Counted from the first letter of the stretch, positions 5,074 through 62,557 are shown. The stretch is DNA of 64,000 nucleotides from Candidatus Zhuqueibacterota bacterium (GCA_049322915.1 JBMOPW010000020.1:64001-128000); one strand, 5' to 3'. Numbers and translations are program-made. Notes: generated from the sequence alone by a model not told the origin.

Positions 5074-5309
5074 ACATCAAAATTTTAGGATCGGGCTGCG
5101 CCAATTGTGAAAAACTGGAAGCACTGGCAAAACAGGCTGCTGAAGATTTGAACGTGGACGCCACATTTCTGAAAGTAAAAAAAATCGACGACATTCTGGA
5201 CTACGGAATCGCCCGCACGCCTGGCCTGGTGATCGATGAAGTAGTGAAATCATCGGGCAGAATTCCTTCGCTGGATGAAATAAAAAAGTGGATTCAGGAA
5301 GCTAAGTAA
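5070..5309 (+). CDS. Small redox-active disulfide protein (MTH895/thioredoxin_3 family)
   Basis: IKILGSGCANC...TPGLVIDE..SSGRIP. Confidence 0.9.
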   Translation: MNIKILGSGCANCEKLEALAKQAAEDLNVDATFLKVKKIDDILDYGIARTPGLVIDEVVKSSGRIPSLDEIKKWIQEAK

Positions 5310-5377
5310 ACAACCACAAAAAAATAATTACCAATACTTAATTCTTTTAGCTATTGAATTAAAATGACCGTTGAATA

Positions 5378-5447
5378 CGCCAAAGGACGCATCTGCCTTT
5401 GGCATGATCCGTGTGAATCAGTGTCATCCGCGTCATCCGCGTGCCAT
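5378..5447. repeat. Short hairpin followed by a 9-bp-period ATCCGCGTC repeat
   Basis: GCCAAAGG..CCTTTGGC stem, then ATCAGTGTC ATCCGCGTC ATCCGCGTG; the reverse complement recurs at ~23990-24025. Confidence 0.6.
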
Positions 5448-5500
5448 GAATTAACTCAAGTTTGCCACTAACTCAATTATCGAAAAAAAGTAAGTTACGC

Positions 5501-44515: not shown

Positions 44516-46318
44516 TTAAAACGCCTGTCCCACAGAGAAGTAAAACTCGCCGGCTGACTCGCCCGGCTGCCGATCGAATTTGCGGCTGTAGTCCACGCGC
44601 AAAATTCCCAGCGGCGAGTGATAGCGCAGGCCCAGTCCGGCGCCGCCGCGAAGTTCCACAGGGGATAAAAACGAACGGTTCGGCCAGACATTTCCGACAT
44701 CGGCAAAGGCGATGAAGCTGAATTTTTTAATCACCAGATACCGCAGCTCGATCAGATTGAGCGTGAGGAAGATATTGCCGCCGATGGGATTATCGTCCTC
44801 GTTTTTGGGACCGAGAAATTTCTCTTTGAATCCCCGCACCGAGTTGGCGCCGCCATTGAAAAACCGCTCCTGAATGGGTACGGTTTTGGACACGCCGTAA
44901 TTGCCCATCCAGCCCCAGCTCACAGCCGAGGCAATCACAAATCTGGACGTGATGGGAATGAACTGCCGGCGTCGACCGGTCAATTTGATGAACGTGGACG
45001 TGCCCTGCAGAAACGCGCCAGCGCTTTCAATGTCCAGCGACGAGAGCGAGCCTCTGGTCGTGTTGATCATATCGTCCCGCGAATCGCGGGTGACTGTGAA
45101 TATCAAGCTGCGCGTGCTGCCTTTTTCATTCTCTTTCAGCGGTTGACTGAGATCGTTGAGATCCACATCGACGATCTCGTAGCGATAGGCCAGGGACAGA
45201 TTGGAGAAATGTCCCAGCTTTCGGCCGAATGTCAGTCGGATGCCGTGCCGGTTGATGTTGTATCCCGGCTCTTCCCTGCGCTCAACGAAGCCATTGAAAT
45301 CGGTCTTTGTTCGCGTGGAAAATAGCCAGGGATCCGTGAATGACGCTTCGACCCGACGGGTGATGAAACTGGCGAATGTGGCCAGGCCAACCTGCTGCGC
45401 TCTTCCCATCAGATTATTTTGCAGCAATTCCCCTGAACCGCGCCATTTATCCAGTGTACCCCAGCCCAGACCGAAATTCAATTCGGCATTCTGCTTTTCG
45501 GTCACTTCGATCTGAATATCGCGAACGCCGGGCGCTCCCGGTGATTTCTCCATCGGTTTGATGAAGATGCTCTGGAACAGTCCGGTCAAATAGAGCTGCC
45601 GCTGACTCCGGAGTATTTTTTCATAATGATAAATATCACCGGTCTTGAAAACAAGCTCCCGCAAAATGACGTGCGGCCTGGTCTTTTTCAATCCGTTGAT
45701 TTTAATGGCGCCGATTTTCACCTGCGGTCCTTCGCTGATATTGAAATCGATCAGTATTTCATGTTTCTCCGGACTGGCTTTCAACGATGGCCGGATATCC
45801 GCTTCGATGTACCCCTGATTGGCGTACAGGATCAACAGGTTGTAATTGTCCTTTTCGAGCATCTGCTTCTTGAAAGGCTTGTTGATCCCGGACGTGATGG
45901 CGCGGAACAGGACCGGGTCGCTGAAAACGTGATTGCCGAAGAACGAGATGCCGGCAATGGTGGTGATTGCGCCTTCGTTGATTTCAATTTTCAAATCGAC
46001 CTGATTTTTCAGGCTATCGATTTTAATCTGATAATTTTTAATGGCCGCTTCCAGAAAACCTTCGTTGTGGTAGAAGCTGAGAATCACATTCAGGTCATCC
46101 AAAAAAAGGTTGCGCTGAAAGAAATCGCGGTTCAACCAGGAATGCTTTCGGGTGAGCATGATTTTTTTGAGGCTGCCCGCCTGATACGCTGCATTGCCGA
46201 TGAATTGGATATCGTTGACTTTGTATTTCCCCTGGCCTGAGGCAAAGGCCGGCGTCAGGAACGCCGCCAAAGCGCTGGCGAGGAGCAACAGCCGATTGAT
46301 AGAGCGCGAATTGACCAT
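44516..46318 (-). CDS. Omp85 family outer membrane protein (TamA/BamA-like, 3 POTRA)
   Basis: Signal peptide, POTRA repeats, GGANSVRGF, C-terminal FYFSVGQAF. Confidence 0.9.
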   Translation of the reverse strand: MVNSRSINRLLLLASALAAFLTPAFASGQGKYKVNDIQFIGNAAYQAGSLKKIMLTRKHSWLNRDFFQRNLFLDDLNVILSFYHNEGFLEAAIKNYQIKIDSLKNQVDLKIEINEGAITTIAGISFFGNHVFSDPVLFRAITSGINKPFKKQMLEKDNYNLLILYANQGYIEADIRPSLKASPEKHEILIDFNISEGPQVKIGAIKINGLKKTRPHVILRELVFKTGDIYHYEKILRSQRQLYLTGLFQSIFIKPMEKSPGAPGVRDIQIEVTEKQNAELNFGLGWGTLDKWRGSGELLQNNLMGRAQQVGLATFASFITRRVEASFTDPWLFSTRTKTDFNGFVERREEPGYNINRHGIRLTFGRKLGHFSNLSLAYRYEIVDVDLNDLSQPLKENEKGSTRSLIFTVTRDSRDDMINTTRGSLSSLDIESAGAFLQGTSTFIKLTGRRRQFIPITSRFVIASAVSWGWMGNYGVSKTVPIQERFFNGGANSVRGFKEKFLGPKNEDDNPIGGNIFLTLNLIELRYLVIKKFSFIAFADVGNVWPNRSFLSPVELRGGAGLGLRYHSPLGILRVDYSRKFDRQPGESAGEFYFSVGQAF

Positions 46319-46324: not shown

Positions 46325-49300
46325 TTAATGAAATTTGAAGTTAAATTTCAGGTCGAGCCCGGATTTGCCTGTCTGACCTGTATTGCCAATGACGGACAGA
46401 TGTTTGTAAAGCTGATATCCCAGCTTGATTTGCTGTTCATTGGCGTGGCCGACAACCGTTGAATACGTGAGGTTGATGCGGTCGGATAGCTGCTTGGTGG
46501 CTGTCAGTCTCGGCCCCCAGTTTTTATCGACCTGAAAAAGATTGCCCTCGATTGAAATGCTCTCCAGCGAAAGCGTTCGGCCAATTTGCTGTTCCGTCAT
46601 CCCGGCAATTCGCTGGCTGGTGAATTCTTTGAACCGGTCCACGAGCAAGTCCTGAAATGTCGATGTCTTGCCGGCCTCCAGGCCGGTGAATAATGTCCCT
46701 CGGGTGCGCCCCACGGTCAGCATGGCTACAATGTCCGCTTTATCCAGCGAGGGATTGGACGTCAGTACCAGGTCCGGCTTTTCCATCTGTCCGGAAATTT
46801 TCAGAGTGATCTCGTAGCTTGTCTCCTTGATGGCCTGATAATCCGTCACCGTGCAGGTCGCCGTCAGATTGATGTGCGGATTGATCCGTTGCGGGTCGGT
46901 AAAATCGATCAATCCTTCGGTGATTTTGAATTTCCGGTCCAGGTAAAGCACATATCCCTTCTTCACCTCGAGCCGACCGGAGACATTCGGACGGGCGGCT
47001 GTCCCGAAAATATTGAGATTGGAACTCATTTTTATTTTGGCGATGTTGTTATCGATCCAGACGTTCTCCTGCCCCTGGACATTGACGTCCAGCAGCATGT
47101 TGTCGAGGATGCCGGCGACTTGCTGCGACGGACGCTTGGGCCATCGATTCAGCAGTTCTTCCAGTTTCGGCTTGAAATCCATCGTGTATTTCGCCTCGCT
47201 CAAATGAATGGCGCCCTTCAATTTCAGATTCTCTTCATCCTGAGTCAGCGTCAGATTGCCGTCCAGGATGCTCAATTTGAAGAGGTCGGAATGCGTCACC
47301 GTCGCCTTATTCAATTTCAGCGTGAATGAAGAATGGGTCAGTTTGTTGTCAGCGAGATGCGTTCGGCCAAAGAGCGCGAACGTCCCGTCGCCCAGGGCGC
47401 CGGAAAAATCGTCCAAAACCAGTTCATTATCCTGGGCCTGCATCGCTAAATTGATCGCCTGAATCGGCGTTTCCACATTGCGAAATTTCACCAGGCCATG
47501 TTGCACGAAGAAATAGCCATTGATGCGCGGCGCTGCAACTGGCCCGGCGACAAAGATTTTGCAGTTGGCCGATCCTTCGATAGTTTCCAGCGACGGCGCA
47601 AAGGGCGCTAACCAATCCAGATTCAGATTCCCGGCAGCGGCGAAGAAGTTCATTTCCTGAGTTTGCCCGGCGGATGCTTCCTGCGGAAAATCAACGGGCA
47701 GTGAGCCGCCAAATTTGACCCATCCATCATTGATTTTGAAACCGGATTCCGAGAATTTCAGCAACCCCCCTGTCCAACGGGCGCTGATTTGCAGGGAATC
47801 CAGGAGCGCCTCGGCCAATCCGATCTGATTGCTTTTGGCGCTGGCGTAAATCACCGGGGTGTCGGCTGAATCGGAATAGGAAAAAGATAATTCCGCCTCG
47901 CCGGCGAGAGTGACGTCCATCGAAAACAGTTCGGCGAGGGAGCCGAGATTCAGGCGATTGATTCGAAGGACGGCGTGCTTTTTTTCATCCGAAATATACC
48001 GGGCATCGAGCGCGATGTCGGCCACATCGGAAATCGAGCCATGCAACGAGCCGGCATACCCCTTTGTTTCCAGCAGTTCCATGACTCCCTGAAAAGAGAA
48101 TGGAGCGTTTTTCAGTCGGCCGGTGAACTGCTGCAATTGAATCCGGCGATCGTGGCATTGGGCGTGCACCGTTGCGGTGTCAATGGCTGCCAGCGCGGCT
48201 GAAAGAAATTTTCCATTCCGGATGTCGAGAAATCCATCGATTTCTCCCTGCAGGGCCGGGCCAGCCGCTGTCAACGCCGCTGTCAGTTCGCCGGCGATGG
48301 AGAAGGAATCCGGCAAAAACGGGTTGAGCCGTGTCAAATCGAAATGGTCGGCGACCAGCGTCAGCCGCGAGTCCGGTGACGCCGGCAGGTCAGCGAGACG
48401 TCCGTCAAAGGGCAAGCGCCCGTTGATCTCGATCATGCCGCCAGCATGCGAGGCGCGCACGCGGTGCAGCGTCAGCATTTCATCGGCGAATTCGATGTGA
48501 CCGGCGAGGGAGTCCAGCCGGGTGGTCGGCGACCCCAGATGGGATGTCGTCCATTCGAGCGCGATGTGGGGAGCGCGCAGGGGACCGGTCACAGCGCAGG
48601 CGAATGTCAACGCGCCGTCCAGTTCGGTGGGAAAGGACGCCAGTTCGAGCAGCGGAGCGATGCGAATCGCTTCGCCGGAGATGACGCCATTGACGGCGCC
48701 GCGGTTGAATGCGCCGGCGATGGTCAATTCACCGGCAGGCCGGGGAGAGGCGGCGGAATCGCCTTCGAACAATTGCACCGTCACGTCCGCGAACAGAGGC
48801 TGCGGCGCATCGATTTCTCCGCAAATCACAACCTGATTCGCTGCTTTGCTGGCCAGTATCCGATGGATGATAATTTTCTGGTCAGCGTAGGAGGCATGGA
48901 GCGACAGGCTATCCAGCGTGAAAGCATTGAGCCGGCAATTCTCCCAGCGCAAGTTTCCCGATGCCTGCAGTTGTTCGAGGCTGCCATTGGCCGCGACTTC
49001 GTACTGAAGCCGGCCGCTCATGGAATCGATGGGGCTGTCGGAGTTCAGGGCGCTCAGGTTCTCGGTTCGTCCCGCCGCCTGAAAATTATTCACAATAAGG
49101 CCGCTGTCCAGATAGGCAATGCTGCCGCGAGCATAACCTATCGGGAACTGGCTGAAATGTCCGTCCTGAAAAGTGAAATCGAGCGCTGCGGCCGGATGCT
49201 GTACTGTCCCGGAAACCTGGCCCTCAAAATCGAATTGCCCGTTGACATGCTGCACATTGAACAGCCCGGCGATGGATTCGATAGAGGAGAATGCGCCTCG

Positions 49301-50671
49301 AAACTTCGCCTGAATTGTGCTATTCGGGCGCACCTGCCCGCGAAGCGCAAACTGCGAATTTCCCTGGCGCAGTTCACAGGAAATGTCCCCACGGTCGATT
49401 GTGAAGCCGGCGTTGACATCGCCATAGCGCTGAGTTTGATTGACGATATTGCTGATCGTGAGACGACCCTGACCCATCGCGCTGGTCCATGCATCGGCGG
49501 CGCCGCTGAACTGAAGCTCGCCGGAAACTACGCCCCGTGGCGTCTGCGTGTTTTCATGGTACAGGATGGGCAGCATTTCACTCAGATGAAAATTGCTGAA
49601 TGCAGTTCGAAATGAAAATTGTGGCGTTGCATTTTCAACGGAAAGGGAGCCGCTACAGGCCATGTGCCCGTTGAAAGCGTTGACCGAAAAACGGGACAGG
49701 GTATAGGCGCCGTGAGCTGCGCGCCCGTCGGCGCTCAGTTCACGGATGGGAATGCCGTACAATGTGCCGGATGGTATGATCATTCGGACGTCGGCGTCGA
49801 GCTGACGCAGCGGCCCTTCCAGATGCGCATGCGCTTTCAGTTCCCCGCTGAAAGAACGTAGTGAGTCGTTGCTTTGCAGGGCTAACAACGGATTGAGCAG
49901 CGCAAGATTCACAACAGCATCCAGATTGCCATGCGACAGGGATGCGGATTTTAAATCGTATTTCCCGGAAGAAATGAGGGAGATATTTGCAGTACGAAGG
50001 CGCAGAGACGAGAGATTGAGGGTATCGGAAACAAGTGCAAAGTGGAGTTCCAGCGCATCTATCGGCTCGTTGAATCCTCGCCAACCCAGGCTTCCCCGGT
50101 CGATTTTCAATTCACCGACATAGCGATTGGAGACCGTGATCGAATTGAGCGTTGCGTTGATTTGGGGGAGTGTGATTTGTAGCGAATCCACGATGTCATG
50201 GTAATGCACGCTCAGATTGCTGATGTGCAGATGATCGATGTGCACGCTCATCCCTGTCTTGCCTGAGGCTTCGGCCGGGGCGTGATCCGATTTCCCTCGC
50301 CGGAGCGGTTGCGGCAGATTGTAGTCACCCTGTGAATCCTGGTAGATGTGGATCCGGGGCGACGTCAGCTCGATGGACGAGATAGCAATCTTCCCGGCCA
50401 CGAATCCCCAGAGGCTGTATTTCACCAGGATCCGATCGCAGGACACAAAGCGATGTGACGAATCGGCCTGGCTGAAATTCTGAATTCGCACATGGCTGAA
50501 CAGGTCCGTGCGCAGATCGCCCACAGTGACCTGCTGGCCGAAATATGCGCTCAACTCAGACTCCAGCGTCTGCCTCAGCAATTTCTGCCCGGGCGGTATC
50601 CGGAAAAAAATGTAACCGTTCACGAGAATCACGATAATCCCTATAGCGATTCGTGTCACAAATCGTTTCAT
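46325..50671 (-). CDS. Translocation and assembly module TamB-like protein
   Basis: N-terminal TM, long beta-taco region, DUF490-like C-terminus ending GLDLKFNFKF. Confidence 0.87.
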   Translation of the reverse strand: MKRFVTRIAIGIIVILVNGYIFFRIPPGQKLLRQTLESELSAYFGQQVTVGDLRTDLFSHVRIQNFSQADSSHRFVSCDRILVKYSLWGFVAGKIAISSIELTSPRIHIYQDSQGDYNLPQPLRRGKSDHAPAEASGKTGMSVHIDHLHISNLSVHYHDIVDSLQITLPQINATLNSITVSNRYVGELKIDRGSLGWRGFNEPIDALELHFALVSDTLNLSSLRLRTANISLISSGKYDLKSASLSHGNLDAVVNLALLNPLLALQSNDSLRSFSGELKAHAHLEGPLRQLDADVRMIIPSGTLYGIPIRELSADGRAAHGAYTLSRFSVNAFNGHMACSGSLSVENATPQFSFRTAFSNFHLSEMLPILYHENTQTPRGVVSGELQFSGAADAWTSAMGQGRLTISNIVNQTQRYGDVNAGFTIDRGDISCELRQGNSQFALRGQVRPNSTIQAKFRGAFSSIESIAGLFNVQHVNGQFDFEGQVSGTVQHPAAALDFTFQDGHFSQFPIGYARGSIAYLDSGLIVNNFQAAGRTENLSALNSDSPIDSMSGRLQYEVAANGSLEQLQASGNLRWENCRLNAFTLDSLSLHASYADQKIIIHRILASKAANQVVICGEIDAPQPLFADVTVQLFEGDSAASPRPAGELTIAGAFNRGAVNGVISGEAIRIAPLLELASFPTELDGALTFACAVTGPLRAPHIALEWTTSHLGSPTTRLDSLAGHIEFADEMLTLHRVRASHAGGMIEINGRLPFDGRLADLPASPDSRLTLVADHFDLTRLNPFLPDSFSIAGELTAALTAAGPALQGEIDGFLDIRNGKFLSAALAAIDTATVHAQCHDRRIQLQQFTGRLKNAPFSFQGVMELLETKGYAGSLHGSISDVADIALDARYISDEKKHAVLRINRLNLGSLAELFSMDVTLAGEAELSFSYSDSADTPVIYASAKSNQIGLAEALLDSLQISARWTGGLLKFSESGFKINDGWVKFGGSLPVDFPQEASAGQTQEMNFFAAAGNLNLDWLAPFAPSLETIEGSANCKIFVAGPVAAPRINGYFFVQHGLVKFRNVETPIQAINLAMQAQDNELVLDDFSGALGDGTFALFGRTHLADNKLTHSSFTLKLNKATVTHSDLFKLSILDGNLTLTQDEENLKLKGAIHLSEAKYTMDFKPKLEELLNRWPKRPSQQVAGILDNMLLDVNVQGQENVWIDNNIAKIKMSSNLNIFGTAARPNVSGRLEVKKGYVLYLDRKFKITEGLIDFTDPQRINPHINLTATCTVTDYQAIKETSYEITLKISGQMEKPDLVLTSNPSLDKADIVAMLTVGRTRGTLFTGLEAGKTSTFQDLLVDRFKEFTSQRIAGMTEQQIGRTLSLESISIEGNLFQVDKNWGPRLTATKQLSDRINLTYSTVVGHANEQQIKLGYQLYKHLSVIGNTGQTGKSGLDLKFNFKFH

Positions 50672-50810
50672 TAGACGACCAGCTTCCCTTTTGAATTGAC
50701 ATCTTAATTATATTTCGGACTCATAAAAGGTATCATTAAATTCGTTTCGAAACAACATAATTATTTTTTATGAATGAATGAGTCCACTCTGAAAAAAATC
50801 AAAGGTAAAT

Positions 50811-50905
50811 TTCTGTTCCCCGACTTAAAAGGCGGGGCTGTTCAAGGTGTCTAACTTTTAACTTTTTCAATTGAATAGCCATGTCATTTATAACGTGGAA
50901 AAGAA
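50811..50905. repeat. Degenerate inverted REP-like doublet
   Basis: CCCCGACTTAAAAGGCGGGGCTGTTCAA and inverted TTGAATAGCCATGTCATTTATAACGTGG. Confidence 0.5.
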
Positions 50906-51231
50906 ATCATAACCAACGTTTCAAAGCCTCATAAGGCTTTTCCTGATGTCCTTTCTCGTCCCGGTTGCTTGTTGAAATGCGCGCGGCGATTTCAGATCGT
51001 GCGGACGCTTTGATCTAAACTACACCGTCCCGGACATAAAATTTGCGCGTGTTCAGGAGAAAGAACTGGCATTATTTCATGGGGCAACAAATTTAAATTT
51101 GTGAACTTGGAGACCCTGGCTGCATGATTAGTAACAAATTCAAATGCAAAATGTTTCAAGAATTTTAAGTGACTGTCGATAAATGTATGGAATGTATATT
51201 AATAAAACTATATCCATTTTCTGGAGGAAAA

Positions 51232-52551
51232 ATGAAAAAAGTCCTTGTCGTGGATGACGATCCCAATGTATGTCGGTTATTCGAGGTGACGCTTCGGAAG
51301 GCCGGGTATGATGTTCGATGCGCGTTGAGCGCGAAGAATGCGTTGAAAATGGCCATTGACGACCATCCGGATATCATCCTCTCTGATTATATGATGCCGG
51401 ACCAGGATGGAAAGGAGTTCTGCAAAGTCGTTCGCAATCATAAAGAGCTTTCAGCCACGCCTTTCATTGTCATCACTGGCAAGGGAACTCCGAATTTGAA
51501 AACCCAGGGGCTGAGCGAATTATTCGATGATTACCTGGAAAAGCCGGTGAATTTGTCCTTTCTGGTCGCTAAAGTGAATGCAACGGTTCGGCGTGAAGAT
51601 GATACCAAACAGAAACACCAGCACCGCGTGAATCGCCTGTGGTCCATGGTCGTGGTACTGATGGTGTCCATCATCATCGCCGGAGGGATTGCGCTGGGAT
51701 TTCGGTTGCGCATCGAAAGCCAGGCGGCGGAAATCAAAAAACTGTTAGCCCTCAAAGAACGGTATGACAAGCGGATTCTGTCCATCGAAAATCAATTGGA
51801 CTCATTGGGATATGGGCTCGATGACCTCGACTTCGAACGGCTCAACGGTGAATTGAACCAACTGATTCGCAAGGCCAAACTTCTCTCCAGAGAATTGCCG
51901 AGCTCCGATGATCGGGATATTGTCATTCGGGGCATTAAGCAGGTGATGGCCGAGTTTGGCGAGGAGGATTATGTCGTCCCACCGCTATTCGCGAAAGAGG
52001 TCGGCAAGATGATTGACTTCTATGTCCGTGAGAAGCGCTACCATACCATCAGCAACCTTCGCCGGGCAAAGGAATATCTTCCCATGATCAAGGAAAAGTT
52101 CGCTGAAAAGGGTTTGCCTGAAGGGCTTGCTTACATTGCTATGGTGGAGAGCGGATTTAAGCCGGACGCCCTGAATAAAGCGTCCGGCGCGGGCGGCCTG
52201 TGGCAATTGATGCCGGCGACAGCCCGCGAATACGGCCTCCGCGTCAGTGGAAACATCGACGAACGGATGAATCCAGAAAAATCCACAGAAGTGGCGCGCG
52301 AGTACATCATGGACCTGATTGGCGTCTTTGGAAAGGAGTCCTTCATGTTGGCGTTGGCTTCGTACAATGTGGGCGATGGCCGCGTCCGCTATCATTTGAA
52401 ACAACTGTACAATCCATTTGAAGAACGCGATTTCTGGTACCTGTTCAGAAAACGCGCCCTGCCGGAAGAAACCCGGGAATATGTCCCCAAAGTGATTGCC
52501 TCCATTATCATCCATCGCAATCAGGAGAAATTCGGATTGAATGAGGGATAA
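51232..52551 (+). CDS. Response-regulator receiver-TM-coiled coil-SLT lytic transglycosylase fusion
   Basis: VLVVDDD, LSDYMMP, LEKP; TM LWSMVVVLMVSIIIAGGIALGF; AMVESGF, GLWQLMP.TA, ASYNVG, ETREYVPK; GGAGG RBS. Confidence 0.9.
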   Translation: MKKVLVVDDDPNVCRLFEVTLRKAGYDVRCALSAKNALKMAIDDHPDIILSDYMMPDQDGKEFCKVVRNHKELSATPFIVITGKGTPNLKTQGLSELFDDYLEKPVNLSFLVAKVNATVRREDDTKQKHQHRVNRLWSMVVVLMVSIIIAGGIALGFRLRIESQAAEIKKLLALKERYDKRILSIENQLDSLGYGLDDLDFERLNGELNQLIRKAKLLSRELPSSDDRDIVIRGIKQVMAEFGEEDYVVPPLFAKEVGKMIDFYVREKRYHTISNLRRAKEYLPMIKEKFAEKGLPEGLAYIAMVESGFKPDALNKASGAGGLWQLMPATAREYGLRVSGNIDERMNPEKSTEVAREYIMDLIGVFGKESFMLALASYNVGDGRVRYHLKQLYNPFEERDFWYLFRKRALPEETREYVPKVIASIIIHRNQEKFGLNEG

Positions 52552-52674
52552 TTTCTCCACGCGCTGATACAGCGACCTGACCCTCCTGTAATTCTCAGGG
52601 GCTGTATCCAAAGTCTGGTCAGGCCAATGTAATCACAATATATCGATACGATATAGCATTTTATTTATGTTACG

Positions 52675-52732
52675 ATTCAGGCATGTTGTCTTACCTCAAT
52701 AACCACACGTCACGAAGTTACAGAAAGATGCC
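52675..52732. repeat. Partial third copy of the 10037/24170 MITE-like repeat
   Basis: ATTCAGGCATGTTGTCT..CACGAAG..AAGATG matches 24174-24230. Confidence 0.55.
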
Positions 52733-52740
52733 AACTGATC

Positions 52741-52889
52741 GTTCGGGATATTTCCCGATTCTATTCTTTGGACATTTTTAAGGGTTCGGGATATCTATCC
52801 CGATTCTGGACTCTGGACATTTTCAAGGGTTCGGGATATTTCCCGAATCTGATCTTTGGACATTTTCAAAGGTTCGGGATTTCCTGAAT
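52741..52889. repeat. 43-45 bp tandem repeat (~3.4 units) with internal palindrome
   Basis: Units start at 52741, 52784, 52829 and 52872: GTTCGGGATATTTCCCGA...TGGACATTTT..AGG. Confidence 0.85.
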
Positions 52890-53559
52890 GTCCCAGCCGT
52901 TGCCTGCGCTGGATACATATCCAGCGCGATCGGCGTAGTTACGTATTTATCAATAAATTGGGGAGCAAGGGAAGCAGTTCCTGCCTAAAGATTTTGCCTG
53001 TGTCCGGCGCACCCGCAAGCATTCAGCGATTCAACTAATCTGCAACTGCGACTTTACGATTGATCGATCCGCTTCCAACTGACCGAATTTCTGTCAATTT
53101 TTAAAAGTTGTTCCTCCGCGCGCGACGAGCGCCTGTAACATAGATTATTTTTTTGAGATAAAGGCACGCCAGTCGTGGGTATCTCATTGTTTTTCAACCA
53201 AAAAAAAATTCAAGCGATTCTTTAGTTTTATTTAACAGCGTTTTATCGGTAATAAGAATGGAAATTGCATACTCATTTGATGTAGCAGATGGCATGTTCG
53301 CCTTCTCAATTTCCAGCCGAATAGATTCCAGATGAAGTTGACAGCGGGCTATCCTGGCTGGAGATTGCCAATTGCAGGTCACAGGAGGATCGCTGCGGCA
53401 TTGATTCGATGAAATGGTTGATGTGCTTCGATGCCCGGTTTGCAAAGCGATTGAGGACTGCGCTTGCTGAATTTGAGCATCTGTCCGGGTTACACCGGGG
53501 CAAGTACATTCGTTGATGTGTAAACCGAAAATAGGATCAATGAGGATGTGAGGTGGGGC

Positions 53560-53751
53560 ATGATGAAGATCTTTGCTGACGATGTTGTAAAAATCAGGTT
53601 GAAAATGAATCTCACCCAGGAAGAATTTGCCCGGCGGGTGGGTGTCACGCTCTCAACGATTCATCGCTGGGAGAAGGGAAAATCGCTGCCTTCCAAATTG
53701 GCGATTCAACGATTGGTCAGTCTGGAGCGGAATGGTATTCACCATGTGTAA
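53560..53751 (+). CDS. XRE/Cro-family HTH protein
   Basis: LTQEEFARRVGVTLSTIHRWEKGKSLP. Confidence 0.85.
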   Translation: MMKIFADDVVKIRLKMNLTQEEFARRVGVTLSTIHRWEKGKSLPSKLAIQRLVSLERNGIHHV

Positions 53752-53816
53752 CTTTCAAAAGGAACCTCCTGTGCTTTTTGATTCATCAGAACTATTTGCG
53801 CGCATGGAGCAGTGAC

Positions 53817-55649
53817 ATGCTCAATCTCCGTTCAATGTCCATCAAAACCAAGCTGATTGTCAGTTTCACCCTGGTTGCCGTCGCTTCGCTGACGATCGGC
53901 TACGGCTTTCTCATGGTGAATGACATCAATGCATTGAGGCAGGACCTCATCAAAGAAGTATTGCTGGAAACAAAGCTCATCCGGGAGGCATGCCGCCATT
54001 CATTTGCAGCCGGCGATTCCTTGCAAACCCTCACCATACTGAAAAGCCTGGCGTCCGTTGTGCCCCTTGACACGATCATAATTTACTCCGGCGATTCCAC
54101 CGTGTTTGTGAGCGTCCCCGGCCATAAAAATCGGGTTGCGATGAACTATCCCGGCCAGTCGGACCGGCATTTTTTCATAGGTAATTATTTACATGTTTTC
54201 AACGCTATGTTACCTAAAGAGCCAGAAGCCGGTTTCATTCATGTGATCTCATCCTCGGCGCTGTTGCAACTCACGATTGAACGCTATATCCTCACGACGA
54301 TTCTGTTCATGGTCGCGACCGGACTGTTTTCCTTTGTCATCGCCAAAAAATTCAGTCCTCTCATTTCTGATCCAATCATTCAGTTATCAAATGCCTGCAA
54401 TAATATTGCCCAACAAGGCGATTACTCTGTCCGCGTTAATATTTCAAATCAGGATGAGATCGGAAAGCTGGCGGACGAGTTCAACCGCATGATCGGGAAG
54501 ATAGAGACGCAACAGAAAATCGAGGCGAAAACGCAGCAAGCGCTGAAGGAGAATGAGGAGAAATATCGCGTACTTTTCGAAGCTTCGACTGATGCTGTAT
54601 TTCTGGAAACGATTGATGGGGATATTCTCGATTGCAATCACGCTGCCTGCCAGATGTTCCGCGCCCGAAAGGACCAGTTGATCGGGCTGAATGTCAGCGC
54701 GCTGGTGCCGGCTGAACTGGCAAAAAAGCTGCCGGAGATTGTTAGTCGGGAACGATTGAATCAGGGCGTTTTTCTCGAGGCGGAAAATGTACGACACAAC
54801 GGCCAGGTTTTTCCGGTCGAAGTGAACACCAAATTGACGCGAGTGAAGGGTATGGAGGTCGTCATTGCCTACATCCGCGATATTACCCAGCGCAAAATCG
54901 ATGAGAAAGAAATTCGCGCGCTGAACGCCGACCTTGAAAAACGCGTGAATGATCGAACCGCCCAGCTCGCCGCTGCGAACAAGGAATTGGAATGTTTTTC
55001 CTATTCTGTTTCGCACGATTTACAGGCGCCGCTTCGGGCGATCGATGGGTTTTCCCGACAGGTGTACGAACGATACGCTCAGGTTGTGGACGACTCCGGG
55101 CGAAAAAACCTGACGGTCATACTGGACCAGGTGAAACGGATGAATCAACTGATCCATGATCTGCTCAATTTTTCCCGGACAAATCAGAAAGAACTCAAGG
55201 TGCAGGAGATAGATTTCAACAGCCTGGTCAATGACGTCGTGACGGAGTTGAAAGAGCAAATCGACGCGACGAGGATGATTGAATTCAATATTTCACCAGT
55301 TCCGAAAGGACTCGGAGACCCGGCGTTGCTTCATCAGGTGTTCGTAAATCTCATCGGCAATGCGATCAAATTCACCCGGCATAAGGAGCATGCCATCATC
55401 GAGGTTGGATGTTTGCCGGATTCGCGCCGGCATGTTTATTTTGTCAAAGATAACGGCGTCGGTTTTAAAACCGAATATTCGGACAAACTGTTCGGCGTGT
55501 TTCAGAGGTTACACACGCCGGAGCAATTCGAAGGGACAGGCGTGGGACTGGCCATTGTGCAGCGCATCATTCACCGGCATGGGGGAGAAGTCTGGGCAGA
55601 GTCTGCCGTGGATCAAGGCGCTGCGTTTTATTTTTCATTGCCACCTTGA
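53817..55649 (+). CDS. Membrane sensor histidine kinase (periplasmic sensor-HAMP-PAS-HisKA-HATPase)
   Basis: 2 TM helices, DEIGKLADEFNRM, SVSHDLQAPLR, NLIGNAIKF, DNGVG, GTGVGL. Confidence 0.93.
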   Translation: MLNLRSMSIKTKLIVSFTLVAVASLTIGYGFLMVNDINALRQDLIKEVLLETKLIREACRHSFAAGDSLQTLTILKSLASVVPLDTIIIYSGDSTVFVSVPGHKNRVAMNYPGQSDRHFFIGNYLHVFNAMLPKEPEAGFIHVISSSALLQLTIERYILTTILFMVATGLFSFVIAKKFSPLISDPIIQLSNACNNIAQQGDYSVRVNISNQDEIGKLADEFNRMIGKIETQQKIEAKTQQALKENEEKYRVLFEASTDAVFLETIDGDILDCNHAACQMFRARKDQLIGLNVSALVPAELAKKLPEIVSRERLNQGVFLEAENVRHNGQVFPVEVNTKLTRVKGMEVVIAYIRDITQRKIDEKEIRALNADLEKRVNDRTAQLAAANKELECFSYSVSHDLQAPLRAIDGFSRQVYERYAQVVDDSGRKNLTVILDQVKRMNQLIHDLLNFSRTNQKELKVQEIDFNSLVNDVVTELKEQIDATRMIEFNISPVPKGLGDPALLHQVFVNLIGNAIKFTRHKEHAIIEVGCLPDSRRHVYFVKDNGVGFKTEYSDKLFGVFQRLHTPEQFEGTGVGLAIVQRIIHRHGGEVWAESAVDQGAAFYFSLPP

Positions 55650-55827
55650 TTATAAGCCTATAACGTCATGTAGCAAATTTATCACACTATGTAGAATTTT
55701 TCATCTATCCAAAATACACTAGATAACGATAATAAATCTATGTGACGTGGTAGGGTTAATTTTCCCCGGAACTTGTCTTGTGCTGTCGCCTGTGATTCGT
55801 CAGCAACTCAACTCATGTAAGGAAAGT

Positions 55828-58560
55828 ATGCAAAAGCAATTGCGGATATTAATGCTGGAAGATAATCCGCTGGACGCGGAATTGATACGGCTGGCCATTG
55901 AAAAAGACTGTATCGATTTCACCTATGTCCGGGTGGATGAACAGGATTCTTTTTACGAAGAACTGAGTAACTTCAATCCGGATATCGTCCTGTCGGACTT
56001 CAGATTGCCGCGATTCAATGGACTGACTGCTCTGGACCTGGTCAAGAGCAAATCGCCGGGCACGCCTTTTATTATTGTGACCGGCGCTCTGGACGAAGCG
56101 ACTGCGGTGGAATGCATCAAGTTCGGCGCAGTCGATTATGTGCTCAAAGATCAGCTAGTTCGGCTTGGCGCGGCCATCAAAAAAGCAATGGAGTTGAAAG
56201 AGGAAAAGTACAAGAAAGAACTCGCTGAGGAAGCGCTGCGGCAGAGTGAAGAGAAGTATCGGACGCTTGTAGAAAACGCGAACGAAGCGGTGATTGTGCT
56301 CCAGGATGATCAGTTCAGATTCACCAATACCAAGGCGGAGCAGATCACCGGATACAATCAGGTGCAATTGGCTTCCATGTCATTTCTGGACATGATCGTC
56401 CCTCATGATCGCGAGGAGGTCAAAGCAAGTCATCAGCGGTGGCTGCTCGAAGGCGAGGAAATTGGCGTGCTTCAGTATAAAATCATTGACCGGAGCGGAA
56501 GCCTGAAATATCTGGGCGGTAAGGGAGTATTAATCGACTGGAACGGACGACCAGCCATGCTGGCGTTCATCGGGGATATTACCCAGCGCAAGAAGGCTGA
56601 ACTCGCTGTGCTGGAGAGCGAGCAGAAGTTTCGGGCGTTTTTTGAAAACGCGCCGGAATATTACTACATCATCTCTCCGGATGGAAAAATTATCGATGTC
56701 AATAATAGCGCGCTGAATGTGCTGGGCTATCTCAAAAATGAGATCATTGGACTATCCATTTTTGCCACGGTATTCGATCGCTCATCGAGACCGTCCGCTG
56801 AGGCGATCTTTCAGGAATGCAAAACCTGTGGGCAGGTTCGCGATCAGGAACTGACGATTATCACGCGACAGGAAGAAAAGCGAATCGTGCTGCTCAGCGC
56901 GGATGTCGTGGTCGATCCCGAGGGGCAGATCATCTATTTACTTTTTGTTCAACGGGATATTACAGAACGCCTGAGGACGACTGCTCTGCTCAATGAACAG
57001 GCGAGATTGCTGGAGCTTTTCTTCAGCTATACGCTCGATTGCATGATCATTATGGATAAAAAATTCAATTACATCCGGGTGAACAACGCCTTTGCCCGGG
57101 CCTGTCATCGGAAAACATCGGAATTCCCGAATCGGAACCATTTCGACTTTTTCCCATCCGAGCCCAGGGATATTTTTGAAATGGTGGTGCAGACCAAACA
57201 CCCCTGTACGGCCATTGCGCGCCCAATTGTCTTTCACAAGAAAGATAAAAATGAACTGACTTTCTGGGATTGGGCGCTGGTCCCAATTCTCGACGACAAG
57301 AACGAGGTGGATCTGCTCATCTTTTCAATGCGGAATGTGACGGATAGAAAAAAAGCAGAAGAAGAATTGCAATTGAGCGAAGAGCGGTTCCGCTCGCTCA
57401 TTTTCAAAATCCAGGCAGCGGTGATGGTGTACGACTCCAACAAAAAAATAGTGATGAGCAATACAATTGCCCAGGATTTACTGGGCATCCGTCAGGCAAA
57501 GGCCAACTACACGGTAGATAATTCCGGTCTTCTGGAATTCTACCGCGATGATGGCAGCCTCATGACGCCCGAGGAATATCCAATCAATCAGGTGATGAAG
57601 TCCCGAAAGCCGCTGCGCGATGTGATTCTTGGCGTGAACAATCCGTTCAAAAAGACCACCGTCTGGATTCTGGTCAATGCCGATCCGGTGTTCGATGATT
57701 CCGGCAATATCCTGCAGACCATTATCAGTTTTGTCGATATCACGGAGCGAAAAAAACATGAGGAGCAGTTGCGCGAACTGAATCAAGAACTGATCCGTTC
57801 GAATAAAGAACTGGAAGAATTCACCTACGTTGTCTCCCACGACCTGAAAGAGCCACTGCGCAAAATGGCTTCGTTCAGCGAATTTCTCTTTGAGGACTAC
57901 TCGCACCTGCTGGACGAACAGGCCATTTCCTATCTCAATCGCATTCAGGATGCTGCCGAACGGATGAAAGGGTTGATCGAGAATCTGCTGGAAATTTCCC
58001 GAATCGGGACGCGCAAGAAAGAACTGGTTGTGGTGGACACCAACCATCTGGTGGAGGAAGTGTTGCACCTGCTGCAATTTTCCGAGACAAAATACTCCAA
58101 TAAAGGATTCAGAAATTTTGTCGATACTAACGATAATATAGTGATGCTTTCCAGGTTGCCTGCTGCATTGGCGGACCCGACGCAGTTGCACCAGGTCTTT
58201 CAGAATATCATCTCCAACGGATTGAAATTTCATCGGTCAGACGTGACCGCGGAATTAAAAATTACCGCCAAAAAGCGGGGCGAATGGATCACCTTTGCAA
58301 TTCAGGATAATGGAATTGGAATTGAACAACGGTACCTTGAAAAGATATTTATCATCTTTCAACGGTTGCACACGAAAGAGATGTATCCCGGAACAGGTGT
58401 TGGATTGGCGTTGTGCAAGAAGATTATCGAGCGGCATAATGGCCGTATCTGGGCGGAGTCGAAGTACGGAAGTGGAAGTACGTTTTATTTTACGTTAAGG
58501 GAGGGAAAGAGCAATGAAACCCAAAGAAGAACGTATGCCCATTCTGTTAGTCGAAGATGA
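55828..58560 (+). CDS. REC-multiPAS histidine kinase
   Basis: N-terminal REC, four PAS/PAC repeats (DITQRK), VSHDLKEPLR, DNGIG, GTGVGL. Confidence 0.93.
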   Translation: MQKQLRILMLEDNPLDAELIRLAIEKDCIDFTYVRVDEQDSFYEELSNFNPDIVLSDFRLPRFNGLTALDLVKSKSPGTPFIIVTGALDEATAVECIKFGAVDYVLKDQLVRLGAAIKKAMELKEEKYKKELAEEALRQSEEKYRTLVENANEAVIVLQDDQFRFTNTKAEQITGYNQVQLASMSFLDMIVPHDREEVKASHQRWLLEGEEIGVLQYKIIDRSGSLKYLGGKGVLIDWNGRPAMLAFIGDITQRKKAELAVLESEQKFRAFFENAPEYYYIISPDGKIIDVNNSALNVLGYLKNEIIGLSIFATVFDRSSRPSAEAIFQECKTCGQVRDQELTIITRQEEKRIVLLSADVVVDPEGQIIYLLFVQRDITERLRTTALLNEQARLLELFFSYTLDCMIIMDKKFNYIRVNNAFARACHRKTSEFPNRNHFDFFPSEPRDIFEMVVQTKHPCTAIARPIVFHKKDKNELTFWDWALVPILDDKNEVDLLIFSMRNVTDRKKAEEELQLSEERFRSLIFKIQAAVMVYDSNKKIVMSNTIAQDLLGIRQAKANYTVDNSGLLEFYRDDGSLMTPEEYPINQVMKSRKPLRDVILGVNNPFKKTTVWILVNADPVFDDSGNILQTIISFVDITERKKHEEQLRELNQELIRSNKELEEFTYVVSHDLKEPLRKMASFSEFLFEDYSHLLDEQAISYLNRIQDAAERMKGLIENLLEISRIGTRKKELVVVDTNHLVEEVLHLLQFSETKYSNKGFRNFVDTNDNIVMLSRLPAALADPTQLHQVFQNIISNGLKFHRSDVTAELKITAKKRGEWITFAIQDNGIGIEQRYLEKIFIIFQRLHTKEMYPGTGVGLALCKKIIERHNGRIWAESKYGSGSTFYFTLREGKSNETQRRTYAHSVSRR

Positions 58561-58978
58561 TCCGGATGATATTGAAATTACCCGGCGCGCGTTTCAGGAG
58601 AATCATATTAATCATCCTCTGTACATCGTGCGGGATGGCGCGGAAACAATAGAATTTCTGAAGAAGACCGGCAGATACATGAGCGATGGGAATCTGCCCC
58701 GACCCGGCCTCATTTTACTCGATTTGAATATCCCTCGCATCGATGGCCGCGAAGTTCTCAGACAGATAAAGCAGGATCCTGAGTTGAAATATATTCCGAC
58801 TGTGGTCCTTACTACCTCGAAATTCGATGAAGATATCATGCAGTCCTACCATAGCGGCGCAAATACATTCATTACCAAGTCGTTGCACTTTAAAGAATTT
58901 TCCAAAATGATCCGAATCATTAGTCAGTACTGGCTGGAAGTAGCAGAAATTCCAGGCAACCCTGACCATAAAAAATGA
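58514..58978 (+). CDS. Single-domain response regulator (Rcp1-like)
   Basis: ILLVEDD, ILLDLNIP, VLTTS, GANTFITK, YW. Confidence 0.93.
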   Translation: MKPKEERMPILLVEDDPDDIEITRRAFQENHINHPLYIVRDGAETIEFLKKTGRYMSDGNLPRPGLILLDLNIPRIDGREVLRQIKQDPELKYIPTVVLTTSKFDEDIMQSYHSGANTFITKSLHFKEFSKMIRIISQYWLEVAEIPGNPDHKK

Positions 58979-59085
58979 CGCGCGGGGCAAATCACCAAAA
59001 CCGTCACCAGGAATTGAAAAAGGGATTCGCTTCATTTTTATCACCCCGGAATGCTTTTTCGAAACGGCGTATATCCATAGCGCGG

Positions 59086-59270
59086 CAAATCCGCAAATCC
59101 CAAATTCGAAAATGATCAAATTCCAAATAAATTCCAAATTTCAAATACAAAATTAAAGCCCATGTCTATGATCAAACCAATAAAAGCTGACAATTTGTTT
59201 TTTCGGTTTGGAATTTTGGATATTGCCATTTGGGATTTAGTTGTGATTTAGGATTTGAGTCCTGGGATTT
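59086..59270. repeat. Inverted arrays of ~7-bp AAATTCC-like repeats
   Basis: CAAATCC/CAAATTC/AAATTCC array facing a GGAATTT/GGATTT array. Confidence 0.7.
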
Positions 59271-59323
59271 TCTTGCACAAAAAACAAAGATTTAATTTGT
59301 AATACTATAGAGGATTTCGTTGA

Positions 59324-62300
59324 ATGATAAAGGTTTTATACATTGAAGACGATTTCGAAGATGCGCTGATCGTCAGTCGTTATCTCACCCAGAGCCGTGA
59401 TGCGATTGATTTGCATGTGGCGTCCACCGGCGCGGAAGCCCGGGACAAGCTGCAGCACAACTCCTTCGACTGCGTGCTGCTGGATCAGAATTTACCTGAT
59501 ACCAACGGCCTGGCGCTTCTGCAGGACATCAAATCGAAATGGCCTAAAATGCCCGTGCTGATGCTCACCGGCCAGAAGGATGACCGGCTCACTGTCGGTT
59601 CTTCCATTTTGGGAGCGGACGATTTCATTGTCAAGGATGAAATCAGTACGGCGGTTCTGACCGAGACCATTTTCAGCGTCGTTCATCTGGGGGAGAACAT
59701 TGAGGAAGATTCAGACCTACGAGCGGGCGCCGTCCCACTGGGAGAGACAGAATCGACAGCTTTTAAGCATGGCGCGTACGGAATTTATGAGACGCTCATC
59801 AATACCATGACTGAGGGATTGATTTCGCTGGATTTGAACGGGACGATTCTGTTTGCCAATCAACAGGCCGGGGATCTGTTGAAGCGTCCTGTGAATTCAC
59901 TTTTTGGCGAACGAGCCAGCGTGCTGTTTGACGCATCTGATTTTCGCCTGTTCGAAGAAAAATTCACTGAGAATAAAAAGGGATTAACGCTCAAATATGA
60001 GGCGCAATTCACATGTCTGGATGGGACCAGGATCCCTGCGATTATCAGTCAGAGTCCCTACTATGACCGATGGCATCATCTGGCCGGCTGCCTGATGGTG
60101 GTCACGGATATCAGCGACCGCAAGCAGGCAGAAAATATGCTCCGCGCTTCGGAGAAAAGATTTCGTGATATTGCTGAGAATACGACGGATTTGATCTGGG
60201 AGATGAATCCGTTTCGGTGTTTCACCTATGTCAATCCACTGGTCAGGAACATCCTCGGCTTCAGTCCTGAGGAGATTCTCGGCCGGTGCATCGATGAAAT
60301 AATGCTCGCATCCAGTCAGGACAGAACGGGCAATGGGAACGGGGCCGATTCTGACAACCGTCTCTCGGTGAAGGTCGTTGAGGGAATCTGGCGTCATAAA
60401 AATGGCAGTGAAATTATTCTCGAAATGAGCAGCATCCCGATTTACGATGCCGTGGGAAAGTTGCTCGGCTACCGCGGCATCAGTCGCGATATCACCGATC
60501 GCAAGCAGATGGAAGAAGCGCGGCTTCGCGAGCGGGAGATGGATCTGAATCTGGAGCGCTGCATTTCTCAGGTTTCCAGGCATCTCATTGAATCCGAAAA
60601 TGTCGATGAGGCCATCAGGCACAATCTCGAATTGATCGGAAAAACGTTCAATGCCGATCATTGCTTTGTGTACACCCGGGGCGATGTCGATAACCCGGAT
60701 CATTTTTTTAAAAAATATTTCTGGAATGCACGATCAGGCGCTGACTGGTTCGCTGATCAGACCCACATGGTTCTCGATGCCAATTCTTCCTGGGCCAAAC
60801 TTTTATCTTCGAATCAGGTCGTGATCCTGCCGGATGCTGCCCACGCTGGCGATGATTCCGTCTCTGAAGCGGACTATTTACGCGATTTGCGCATCAGCGC
60901 CATCCTGTTGGTCCCGCTCTTTTTGCAGGACGCCTTCTATGGCTATGTTGGGATCGATTACATCGCCAAAGCGCACAATTGGCGGATGACAGAAATTGCC
61001 GCTGTGAGAACAATGATTGAAAACATCAGCAAGGTATTCGAGCGCAAACATGCCCGCGCTGCACTGTCCCAGCAGAAGGCAAAGTACGAGACCGTTATTA
61101 AAAGCACCAGTGATGGCATCATACTCCTGGATAATAATCTGAAAATCACGCTGATAAATCCTGCAGCGCTGAAAATACTGCACTGCTTTTATCGCGATAC
61201 CAAGGCCAAATCGATCCTCAAAGACCTGGGCGATATTTCCGTCGGCGATATCCTGACCACGATTAAACAGAATAACCTGAGTTCAATATCCAGAGAAATC
61301 AAAATCAGCAATGGAATCATGCGATTTTTCAATGTCGTCTTCTCGTCTGTGAAAAATATCAAAGCCGAGGTGATCGGACTGGTGGTGAATATTCATGAAA
61401 TTTCCGAGATTCGCAATGCACAGGAACAGTTGATTCACTCATCGAAATTAGCGTCCCTGGGACAACTCGCTGCCGGCGTCGCCCACGAGTTGAACAATCC
61501 CCTCACCTACATGTTGGGCTATGCGGAGCTATTGCACTCCAACCAGGAAGACCCTGAAGTCAAATTGAAATTGTCGAAAATACTGGATGGCGGGCGTCGC
61601 GTGAAAGGCATCATCGAAGACATGCTGGAGTTCTCCCACAACCAGACGCAGAACCAGGAATTGTCCGATATTAACAAGACCATTGAAAAGACATTGACGC
61701 TCATGGGCAGACGGCTTTCCAATCATAATATCCACCTGATCAAATCGTTCGATAAACGGCTGTCGCTGGTCTATTGCAATAAAGGCGAGTTGCAGCAGGT
61801 GTTTTTGAACCTGATTCAAAATGCGTTCGATGAGCTGGTGCGCAGCAAGGTCGGCGATAAAATCGAGATTGTGACCGAGCAAATTTCCCGGCAGAATATC
61901 CGTTTGAAATTCATCGATAACGGACCAGGCATGTCCGAGGAAATCCAGCAGCGCATCTTTGAACCGTTCTTTACCACCAAAGCCCCGGGCGAGGGAACCG
62001 GGCTGGGACTGAGCATCAGCTATAAAATCATCAAAAAGCACGATGGCGCCATCACGGTCAAAAGCAGCGTGGGAAAAGGAACCACATTCATCATCGAACT
62101 GCCGACGCGAGTGGACCAGGTTTCGAAGAATTCCGACATCACTGATCTGGATCTGGAATTCAAAGGGGAGGGCAAGTCCATTGAGACGGCGAAGGTCGTC
62201 ATCGTGGAGGACGAAGAAAAGAGCGATTCCCTGGTCAAAATCCTGTTCCGCACCGAGCATCAACTTGTCACCATCAGTCAGATTTCCCAGGCGCTGGATA

Positions 62301-62557
62301 TGCTGCGCACCGACGATCTGGATGTGCTGCTCGTGGACATCAAAAGCTTGAGACACATCAAGCAGTACATTCAAAACGGATTCATCCCACAGTGGAAGAG
62401 CCGAATCATTTTTCTCTTTGACTATCCGCTCAATGAACGGGTGAAGGCGTCTCTCTGGGGGAAAGGCATTGGCTGTCTGGCCTTGCCATTCAAAATTGAT
62501 GAGGTGATTCAATTGGTGAATGCAGTGCTGGAGCGCAGCAAAAAGGCCGGAAGATGA
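59324..62557 (+). CDS. Hybrid histidine kinase REC-PAS-PAS-GAF-PAS-HisKA-HATPase-pseudoREC
   Basis: [28 protein letters not shown]-terminal REC lacks the conserved Thr and Lys. Confidence 0.92.

Follow-up and report, generated by a model that had tools for sequence, protein, structure and literature searches.

The gene described here lies at positions 51232..52551 (+) of a 64,000-nt stretch of DNA from a Candidatus Zhuqueibacterota bacterium (JBMOPW010000020.1:64001-128000, GCA_049322915.1). The whole stretch is called the window below, and positions are counted within it. The gene product, REC-SLT, joins an N-terminal receiver domain (REC, residues 4-115) to an MltD-like module of the lytic transglycosylase type (SLT, residues 226-436) by way of a membrane helix (139-157) and a heptad stalk (160-222). 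The gene and its parts, with the evidence for each, are as follows.

51223..51227 (+): GGAGG ribosome-binding site, read from the sequence, with 4 nt between its end and the ATG
51232..52551 (+): gene for REC, transmembrane helix, stalk and SLT, 439 codons plus stop (open reading frame, Pfam, full-length homologues)
51241..51576 (+): receiver (REC), residues 4-115 (Pfam; NCBIfam PhoB/YycF; PDB YycF 2zwm; Foldseek)
51385..51387 (+): codon for D52 in SDYMMP, the Asp predicted to accept the phosphate (invariant in 16/16 sequences)
51553..51645 (+): alpha5 of REC with the basic stretch next to the membrane, residues 108-138 (modelled helix 108-191; Lys and Arg counts)
51646..51702 (+): single transmembrane helix, residues 139-157 (hydropathy, 16/16 sequences)
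51709..51897 (+): predicted periplasmic heptad stalk, residues 160-222 (heptad test; invariant columns; common to FHA-SLT proteins)
51907..52539 (+): MltD-like lytic transglycosylase module, residues 226-436 (Pfam, NCBIfam, PDB, Foldseek, motif alignment)
52096-52410 (+): Pfam SLT core, residues 289-393 (Pfam)
52147..52149 (+): codon for E306 in the E-S motif, predicted to be the catalytic Glu (invariant; aligned with MltD and T7 gp16)

Homologues were sought by a word-indexed search of 5.8 billion proteins. Fifteen clusters carried both Pfam domains; they were 54-96% identical to the query over 99-100% of its length, measured 439-458 aa and were drawn from JGI, Logan, NCBI and ENA assemblies. 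Together with the window's protein they form the 16-sequence alignment to which all statements of invariance refer. The likely start of the gene is the ATG at 51232, giving 439 aa; the aligned Met is the first residue in 14 of the 15 homologues, and the longest frame, opened by a GTG, runs from 51169 to 52551 (+) and would encode 460 aa.

Pfam assigned residues 4-115 to Response_reg (PF00072; E 5.3e-22, 78.5 bits against a cut-off of 30.2), and the best NCBIfam profiles for this part were PhoB (94 bits) and YycF (93 bits). Among PDB entries, YycF, PhoP and RpaA were the best matches by phmmer and Foldseek (YycF 2zwm, E 1.3e-22); the best solved Foldseek matches of the receiver were RpaA, VicR, PhoB and YycF, with TM-scores by target of 0.85-0.90 to solved receivers. 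In an AlphaFold2 (AF2) model the receiver displayed the CheY-like arrangement of five strands alternating with helices. A preliminary description of the gene had called the receiver intact, citing a DDD pocket, the Asp of SDYMMP, a Thr and a Lys-Pro pair; D8, D9, D10, S51, D52, T82, Y101, K104 and P105 were indeed invariant in 16/16 sequences. We take D8/D9/D10, D52, T82, Y101 and K104 to be the acidic pocket, the phospho-acceptor and the switch residues of receivers, with D52 presumably at the acceptor position of the CheY-like fold. The beta5-alpha5 sequence (DDYLEKP...AKV.A..RR) resembles, in our judgement, that of the OmpR/PhoB/WalR subfamily. This likeness is limited to the receiver part. 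No Trans_reg_C winged-helix domain was detected in the protein by Pfam at E<=1, which places it outside the OmpR/PhoB family. No Hpt or other signal-passing domain was found by Pfam beside REC.

The SLT profile (PF01464) matched residues 289-393 (E 7.2e-25, 87.3 bits against a cut-off of 21.3). The E-S, GLWQ, AYN-G and YVPK motifs of the module, most of which had been recognised from the single sequence, align with those of MltD, and E306-S307, G322/W324/Q325, Y378-N379 and Y417/P419 were invariant in all 16 sequences. The region of E306 aligns with the IES of Pseudomonas aeruginosa MltD (8rhe) and the TES of phage T7 gp16; we assume a catalytic role for the Glu at this position. By profile and motifs the module belongs with the family 1 lytic transglycosylases and is a predicted enzyme. 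A phmmer comparison of the SLT part with MltD gave E 6.5e-21, and the best solved Foldseek matches of the periplasmic part were P. aeruginosa MltD structures (8RHF/8RHE/8RHI, E 5e-9, 28-29% identity over about 195 columns). Assignment to MltD proper was considered and rejected: the NCBIfam MltD model (NF008050) covers residues 263-436 only (profile positions 86-252 of 457) and scores 103.6 bits, under the equivalog cut-off of 508, there is no lipoprotein signal, and, as noted from the outset, LysM repeats are missing (no Pfam match in the protein even at E<=1).

One hydrophobic segment was found, at the same place, in 16/16 sequences (here residues 139-157, mean Kyte-Doolittle 2.66), and no second segment in the 16 scored above 1.67. 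The number of Lys plus Arg residues (K+R) was 4-8 in the 15 residues before this helix and 2-5 in the 15 after it, the count on the N-side being higher in 13/16, equal in 3/16 and lower in 0/16. Neither a signal peptide nor a lipobox was found in the protein, whose receiver begins at residue 2. Because of this early start, the missing signal peptide, the one conserved membrane helix and the K+R bias, the predicted N-in, C-out topology, with REC cytoplasmic and SLT periplasmic as first proposed, is backed. Beyond the membrane helix, the coiled coil of the preliminary description was borne out by an alignment-wide heptad periodicity of hydrophobic positions in 160-194 (0/2000 shuffles as high) and 200-222 (3/2000), and many residues of the stalk are invariant. 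The AF2 run on the 16-row alignment (mean predicted local distance difference test score, pLDDT, 78.8; predicted template modelling score, pTM, 0.53) rendered alpha5, the membrane segment and the stalk as a single continuous helix (108-191), followed by helices 201-292 and the SLT fold up to residue 429. Predictions of the full-length homodimer scored 0.25, 0.32 and 0.26 against a mark of 0.42, and speak neither for nor against dimerisation.

One conceivable explanation for so unusual an architecture is an assembly chimera, or a gene-calling artefact, fusing a response-regulator gene to a transglycosylase gene. This is hardly credible, since the same fusion occurs in the 15 clusters from four sources, in five named contigs of metagenome-assembled genomes (MAGs) and in five other genomes, and since contigs span the junction. 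A Logan contig of 40,789 nt spans 51000-52700 with 0 differences (its run may be the source sample), and a 151-nt contig from another study covers the junction between alpha5 and the membrane helix (51556-51705) with 4 differences. Two small-share runs (X2 and X3) yielded short, diverged pieces only; a 4,867-nt X2 contig matches 51367-51401 and 52456-52499 with their spacing unchanged, a hint that it carries a diverged homologue. No stops or frameshifts were found in the gene or in its genome copies. With the fusion kept in 15 clusters from separate assemblies and the key residues invariant in 16/16, sequence data exclude a chimera as far as they can. In comparisons of the window with L009 and of L010 with L011, synonymous sites were saturated (pS 0.70-0.88) and non-synonymous differences amounted to 0.03-0.13 per site in every part of the gene, and in the former pair REC diverged least of the four parts at non-synonymous sites. 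Every part of the gene is, by these estimates, under strong purifying selection.

REC-SLT is confined to one small clade, labelled KSB1. Among 41 genomes of the window's class, the full-length protein was present in six (G000, its genus-mate G001, and G017-G020 from two other families), and it was not found in the 12 other genomes of the window's own family included in that search. NCBI names three of the clusters 'transglycosylase SLT domain-containing protein [candidate division KSB1 bacterium]', and JGI names one an OmpR-family regulator. The ESM Atlas held no cluster of at least 50 members with this architecture, and its feature matches reached 0.81, below the meaningful level. The taxonomic labels of the clade disagree between submitters: the records of the closest MAGs, L009 and L010, are titled 'uncultured Cytophagia bacterium', and those of other orthologues 'candidate division KSB1 bacterium'.

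A search with residues 125-439 alone gave 848 hits at E<=1e-10. Among the best 120 of these, the Pfam columns listed 15 REC+SLT, 84 FHA(+YscD-like)+SLT, 8 LysM+SLT and 13 SLT-only proteins. The FHA-SLT proteins are 35-43% identical to REC-SLT over residues ~130-436; one of them, P0123, is 41% identical over residues 131-436 (BLASTP), and since its alignment starts at residue 131 the point of exchange would lie at the cytoplasmic face of the membrane helix. Pfam confirmed FHA at the N-termini of the sister proteins and listed it (PF00498) for none of the 16 REC-SLT proteins, which by their domain content share the membrane helix, stalk and SLT module of the FHA-SLT family and lack its N-terminal FHA. 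By label, the FHA-SLT sequences come from Bryobacterales and other Acidobacteriota, Gemmatimonadales, Myxococcaceae and Chitinispirillia; the family is much larger than REC-SLT and apparently undescribed.

When 1.84 billion 50%-identity representatives were searched exhaustively with HMMER, a single full-length REC-SLT (P0015) was recovered, together with an N-terminal fragment (P0225) and a stand-alone receiver (P0349); no further row listed by this search joins receiver and SLT matches. In 41 listed rows the SLT-side match reached back to residue 183 or earlier, and 37 of these distant, stalk-sharing representatives were scanned for domains (P0043, P0199, P0241 and P0336 were omitted, FHA being already listed for P0043 in the homologue search): 30 carried FHA or YscD-like domains, seven had no recognisable domain and none had REC. 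In a quick maximum-likelihood tree of 71 rows (16 REC, 39 FHA and 11 LysM, plus 3 FHA and 2 LysM from the window's class), REC-SLT formed one clade with an SH-aLRT support of 100. FHA-SLT was also present in six of the 41 class genomes (G013, G025, G030, G033, G035, which has it twice, and G040), and it never co-occurred with REC-SLT; this non-overlap is only suggestive. Taken together, the membrane helix, stalk and SLT module of REC-SLT are judged, from sequence similarity, to descend from the FHA-SLT family or alongside it.

The surroundings of the gene, in the window and at three orthologous loci, contain the following features.

44516-46318 (-): Omp85/POTRA protein (TamA-like), divergent from REC-SLT
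46325-50671 (-): TamB, divergent from REC-SLT
53548-53751 (+): 67-aa HTH_3/XRE-type open reading frame (ORF; E 1e-12), directly upstream of the HAMP-PAS kinase
53778-55649 (+): HisKA/HATPase_c kinase 1 (HAMP-PAS), starting 1.2 kb past the REC-SLT stop
55747-58560 (+): HisKA/HATPase_c kinase 2 (REC-PAS, 937 aa)
58514-58978 (+): 154-aa receiver overlapping kinase 2
59324-62557 (+): HisKA/HATPase_c kinase 3 (REC-PAS-GAF, 1077 aa)
L010:5800-9881, L011:862-4921, L012:952-3807 (all -): AsnB-like/YdjC operon, with a D-Ala-D-Ala ligase next in L010 and L011

A metallophosphoesterase gene also lies upstream of REC-SLT, on the opposite strand. The same-genus locus L009 retains TamA, TamB, kinases 2 and 3 and the small receiver, and has neither kinase 1 nor the HTH ORF. 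The retained cluster of REC-PAS kinase, 154-aa receiver and REC-PAS-GAF kinase (55747-62557; 60-74% identity in L009) is probably a separate multi-step phosphorelay, and the absence of both the HTH ORF and the HAMP-PAS kinase from L009 suggests that this pair was recently inserted between REC-SLT and the conserved kinases. At L010, L011 and L012, whose orthologues are ~64% identical, REC-SLT is instead divergent from the AsnB-like/YdjC operon, possibly, with the D-Ala-D-Ala ligase, a cluster for cell-wall precursors or modification; a RelA/SpoT-like protein and a sigma-54 activator are encoded 3' of REC-SLT in L010 and L011, and a glycerate kinase upstream of it in L013. TamB appears to evolve unusually fast in the pair formed by the window and L009: it is 46% identical (46325-50671, -, against L009:5401-9759), and its neighbours are 72-89% identical (TamA-like protein 75%, REC-SLT 89%).

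An Rfam scan of 50500-53900 at E<=0.1 returned no match, and promoter and terminator scans gave counts not above those of shuffles. Just 3' of the gene, at 52741-52880, lie 3.2 copies of a 43-bp repeat unit (85% matches). In one copy the hairpin TCGGGATATTTCCCGA is succeeded by a stretch rich in T (52743-52758), and the array could be a set of stacked terminators or a small repeat element.

Stand-alone receivers 56-62% identical to the fused REC were found in three of the six REC-SLT genomes. One of these, a 137-aa protein 56% identical to the fused REC (L061:9980-10393, -, equivalent to G000:C13 ~70111-70524), is encoded in an operon with three GT2 and one GT1 glycosyltransferases, a Wzy/O-antigen-ligase-like protein, a methyltransferase, a hexapeptide transferase and an AsnB-like amidotransferase. 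In L012/G019 a 127-aa receiver (4059-4442, +; 58% identical) lies 55 nt upstream of REC-SLT (4498-5874, +); either the receiver was duplicated in tandem here, or this gene gave rise to the fusion. Besides REC-SLT, genome G000 encodes four SLT proteins, of which one is a canonical SLT+LysM protein, one is long and has its SLT domain at the C-terminus, and two are short; this makes five SLT ORFs in all, so that REC-SLT is an extra, specialised enzyme. A profile search counted 101 REC-containing ORFs in the genome, many of them in hybrid kinases. Beyond REC-SLT, three ORFs combine an N-terminal REC with a hydrophobic segment; one of them encodes a REC-kinase, and in the other two no second domain is recognisable. 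The last ~25 residues of one 154-aa receiver (L072, G000:C44:144188-144652, +) are hydrophobic (from residue 131, mean 1.94), and this protein may be tail-anchored.

The explanation that we prefer, with a probability of roughly 0.6, is that REC-SLT is a bitopic lytic transglycosylase of the inner membrane, in which the cytoplasmic receiver switches the periplasmic enzyme through phosphorylation. D52 would be phosphorylated by a histidine kinase encoded elsewhere in the genome, and the receivers would then pair differently at their alpha4-beta5-alpha5 face, in the manner of OmpR/PhoB-type receivers and of enzymes that couple REC to a coiled coil. As no break separates alpha5 from the membrane helix and from the coiled coil on the periplasmic side, the change in pairing could cross the membrane as an altered dimer state or helix register, turning the MltD-like domain on or off, or allowing it to reach peptidoglycan. 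Glycan strands would then be cut at a time set by a cytoplasmic signal, by a response regulator with an extracytoplasmic output. An inside-out signal had already been proposed from the single sequence, and it has now gained comparative support: FHA and REC occupy the same cytoplasmic position on one scaffold, and the presence there of two distinct phospho-signalling domains would argue for phosphorylation-dependent control, from the inside, of an anchored transglycosylase. The switching itself is still conjectural.

Several observations weigh against this explanation. A single full-length representative was found among 1.84 billion, and with so tiny a clade REC-SLT could be a lineage-specific oddity of small consequence. 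The window's own protein has a K+R count of 4 on each flank of the membrane helix, the pTM of the AF2 model is just 0.53, and the alpha4 region (90-92), needed for the proposed dimer switch, has a pLDDT below 50. The backbone of the tree is an open polytomy, so the source FHA lineage is not given and the direction 'FHA replaced by REC' is not proven. Failure of the two architectures to overlap, at six genomes each of 41 related ones, is fairly frequent by chance. FHA-SLT proteins of the same class are farther from REC-SLT (28-36% identity) than acidobacterial ones (39-43%), and an in-place domain swap could not be shown, because the FHA-SLT locus of the same family (G013) shares no neighbours with the REC-SLT loci. 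Nor are FHA-SLT neighbours conserved, no family occurring in more than two of 14 loci (the target was recovered in 14 of the 18 tried). Finally, the REC-SLT neighbourhood is not conserved beyond the genus, no histidine kinase is encoded at the orthologous loci L010-L013 (6-21 kb each), and no kinase partner was identified. The preliminary description had pointed to the divergent tamB-tamA pair and had offered the three downstream kinases as phosphodonors. The positions of these genes stand, and tamAB and two of the kinases recur only in L009. Since the neighbouring kinases are kept only within the genus, kinase 1 not even there, and none is present at L010-L013, neither they nor tamAB are supported as partners, and on this comparison the receiver is best called an orphan.

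The main rival scenario, which we consider rather unlikely, is that phosphorylation governs placement or stability. The transglycosylase would always be active, and REC, in its phosphorylated or its unphosphorylated form, would bind to some machine in the cytoplasm (for division, secretion or polysaccharide export, for instance) or determine how stable the protein is, the signal setting where or how long the enzyme works and not its catalytic rate. FHA domains work by binding phosphorylated partners, and are readers and not emitters of a signal; because FHA is partner-binding, its presence at the same position in the sister family fits this scenario. So do the REC paralogue in the glycosyltransferase/Wzy/AsnB-like operon, the one directly upstream of REC-SLT in L012/G019, and the three loci of another family at which REC-SLT is divergent from the AsnB-like/YdjC/D-Ala-D-Ala ligase operon. 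However, no partner recurs in the neighbourhoods, and the unbroken path from alpha5 through the membrane helix to the heptad stalk, with its invariant residues, looks signal-conducting and not like a simple tether.

Two further scenarios are less easily squared with the invariance of the catalytic and phospho-site residues. Signalling could run outside-in, the SLT domain sensing peptidoglycan or muropeptides, whether or not it cuts them, and changing the gain or loss of phosphate by REC, which would make the protein a phosphate sink or connector reporting the state of the wall. Close stand-alone REC paralogues in three of the six REC-SLT genomes, as with competing receivers, and a genome with 101 REC ORFs and many hybrid kinases are compatible with this. 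The idea is nevertheless improbable, as the invariant SLT motifs suit an enzyme better than a binding-only sensor, no Hpt or onward-passing domain is present, and the FHA of the sister family is a reader. The other scenario, that REC is a phosphorylation-independent dimerisation or folding module anchoring a housekeeping transglycosylase, would agree with the lack of an adjacent cognate kinase outside one genus. Receivers that have abandoned phosphorylation, though, usually lose some pocket residues, whereas D8, D9, D10, D52, T82, K104 and Y101 are invariant here at just 54% overall identity, and between the window and L009 it is REC that has diverged least, among the four parts, at non-synonymous sites; we therefore regard this as very improbable.

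How bacteria restrain their lytic transglycosylases and time their activation is a question for the most part without an answer. Two-component control of wall hydrolases, where known, is transcriptional, and the known direct inside-out control is exerted by the FtsEX ATPase; if a receiver does act across the membrane in REC-SLT, the fusion of receiver, membrane helix and enzyme would solve the problem within one protein and add a new kind of output to those of response regulators. We know of no receiver with an extracytoplasmic enzymatic output, and a literature search, with most subscription journals outside its coverage, found no description of a REC-SLT or FHA-SLT protein. We would give about even odds to the broader proposition that REC-SLT is the first response regulator with its output across the membrane, the signal from D52 passing along an unbroken helix to switch the periplasmic enzyme, and that together with the widespread FHA-SLT proteins it represents a general class of wall-cutting enzymes, not studied to date, whose gating from inside is direct and post-translational and is done by the two main bacterial phosphorylation systems. 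At 439 aa and with two well-understood domains, REC-SLT is a compact test bed for outward signalling through a single membrane helix. Its organism is uncultured; if a culturable myxobacterium has one of the Myxococcaceae-labelled FHA-SLT proteins, the general idea would be genetically testable.

Compared with known systems, REC-SLT shares its catalytic module and motifs with MltD, an outer-membrane lipoprotein. MltD has LysM repeats, according to PDB titles, whereas REC-SLT has none and adds the N-terminal REC, the inner-membrane helix and the heptad stalk. Its receiver is like those of the OmpR/PhoB/WalR(YycF) regulators, but there is no winged helix, alpha5 continues into the membrane helix and the predicted output is periplasmic. 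The FHA-SLT proteins have the same predicted topology and likewise a phospho-signalling domain at the cytoplasmic end; theirs is an FHA/YscD-like domain, a phospho-threonine reader of Ser/Thr-kinase signalling, and that of REC-SLT is a receiver, itself the substrate of a histidine kinase. WspR (3BRE) and PleD were among the Foldseek matches, over 131-149 aligned columns. In both, a helical stalk prolongs alpha5 of the receiver and links the pairing of receivers to the enzyme domain; unlike in REC-SLT, the GGDEF output is cytoplasmic and no membrane is crossed. FtsEX is described as relaying an event in the cytoplasm through the membrane and so controlling a peptidoglycan hydrolase on the outer side (PMC11627006). 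The inside-out principle of FtsEX with EnvC/amidases, PcsB, RipC or CwlO is thus alike, but FtsEX is an ABC-type ATPase complex acting on separate hydrolases via adaptors, while REC-SLT is one polypeptide for which Asp phosphorylation is proposed. In Corynebacteriales, the peptidoglycan hydrolase RipA is under the control of the membrane protein Cg1604 (SteB), which has a receiver-like domain of (beta/alpha)5 fold; unlike the REC of REC-SLT, this domain is extracellular, has no phospho-site and belongs to a separate protein from the NlpC/P60 hydrolase (PMC9897464). The parts of REC-SLT, namely the receiver, the SLT/MltD fold and coiled-coil coupling, are thus known, as is control of a hydrolase from the inside; it is their combination that appears to be new.

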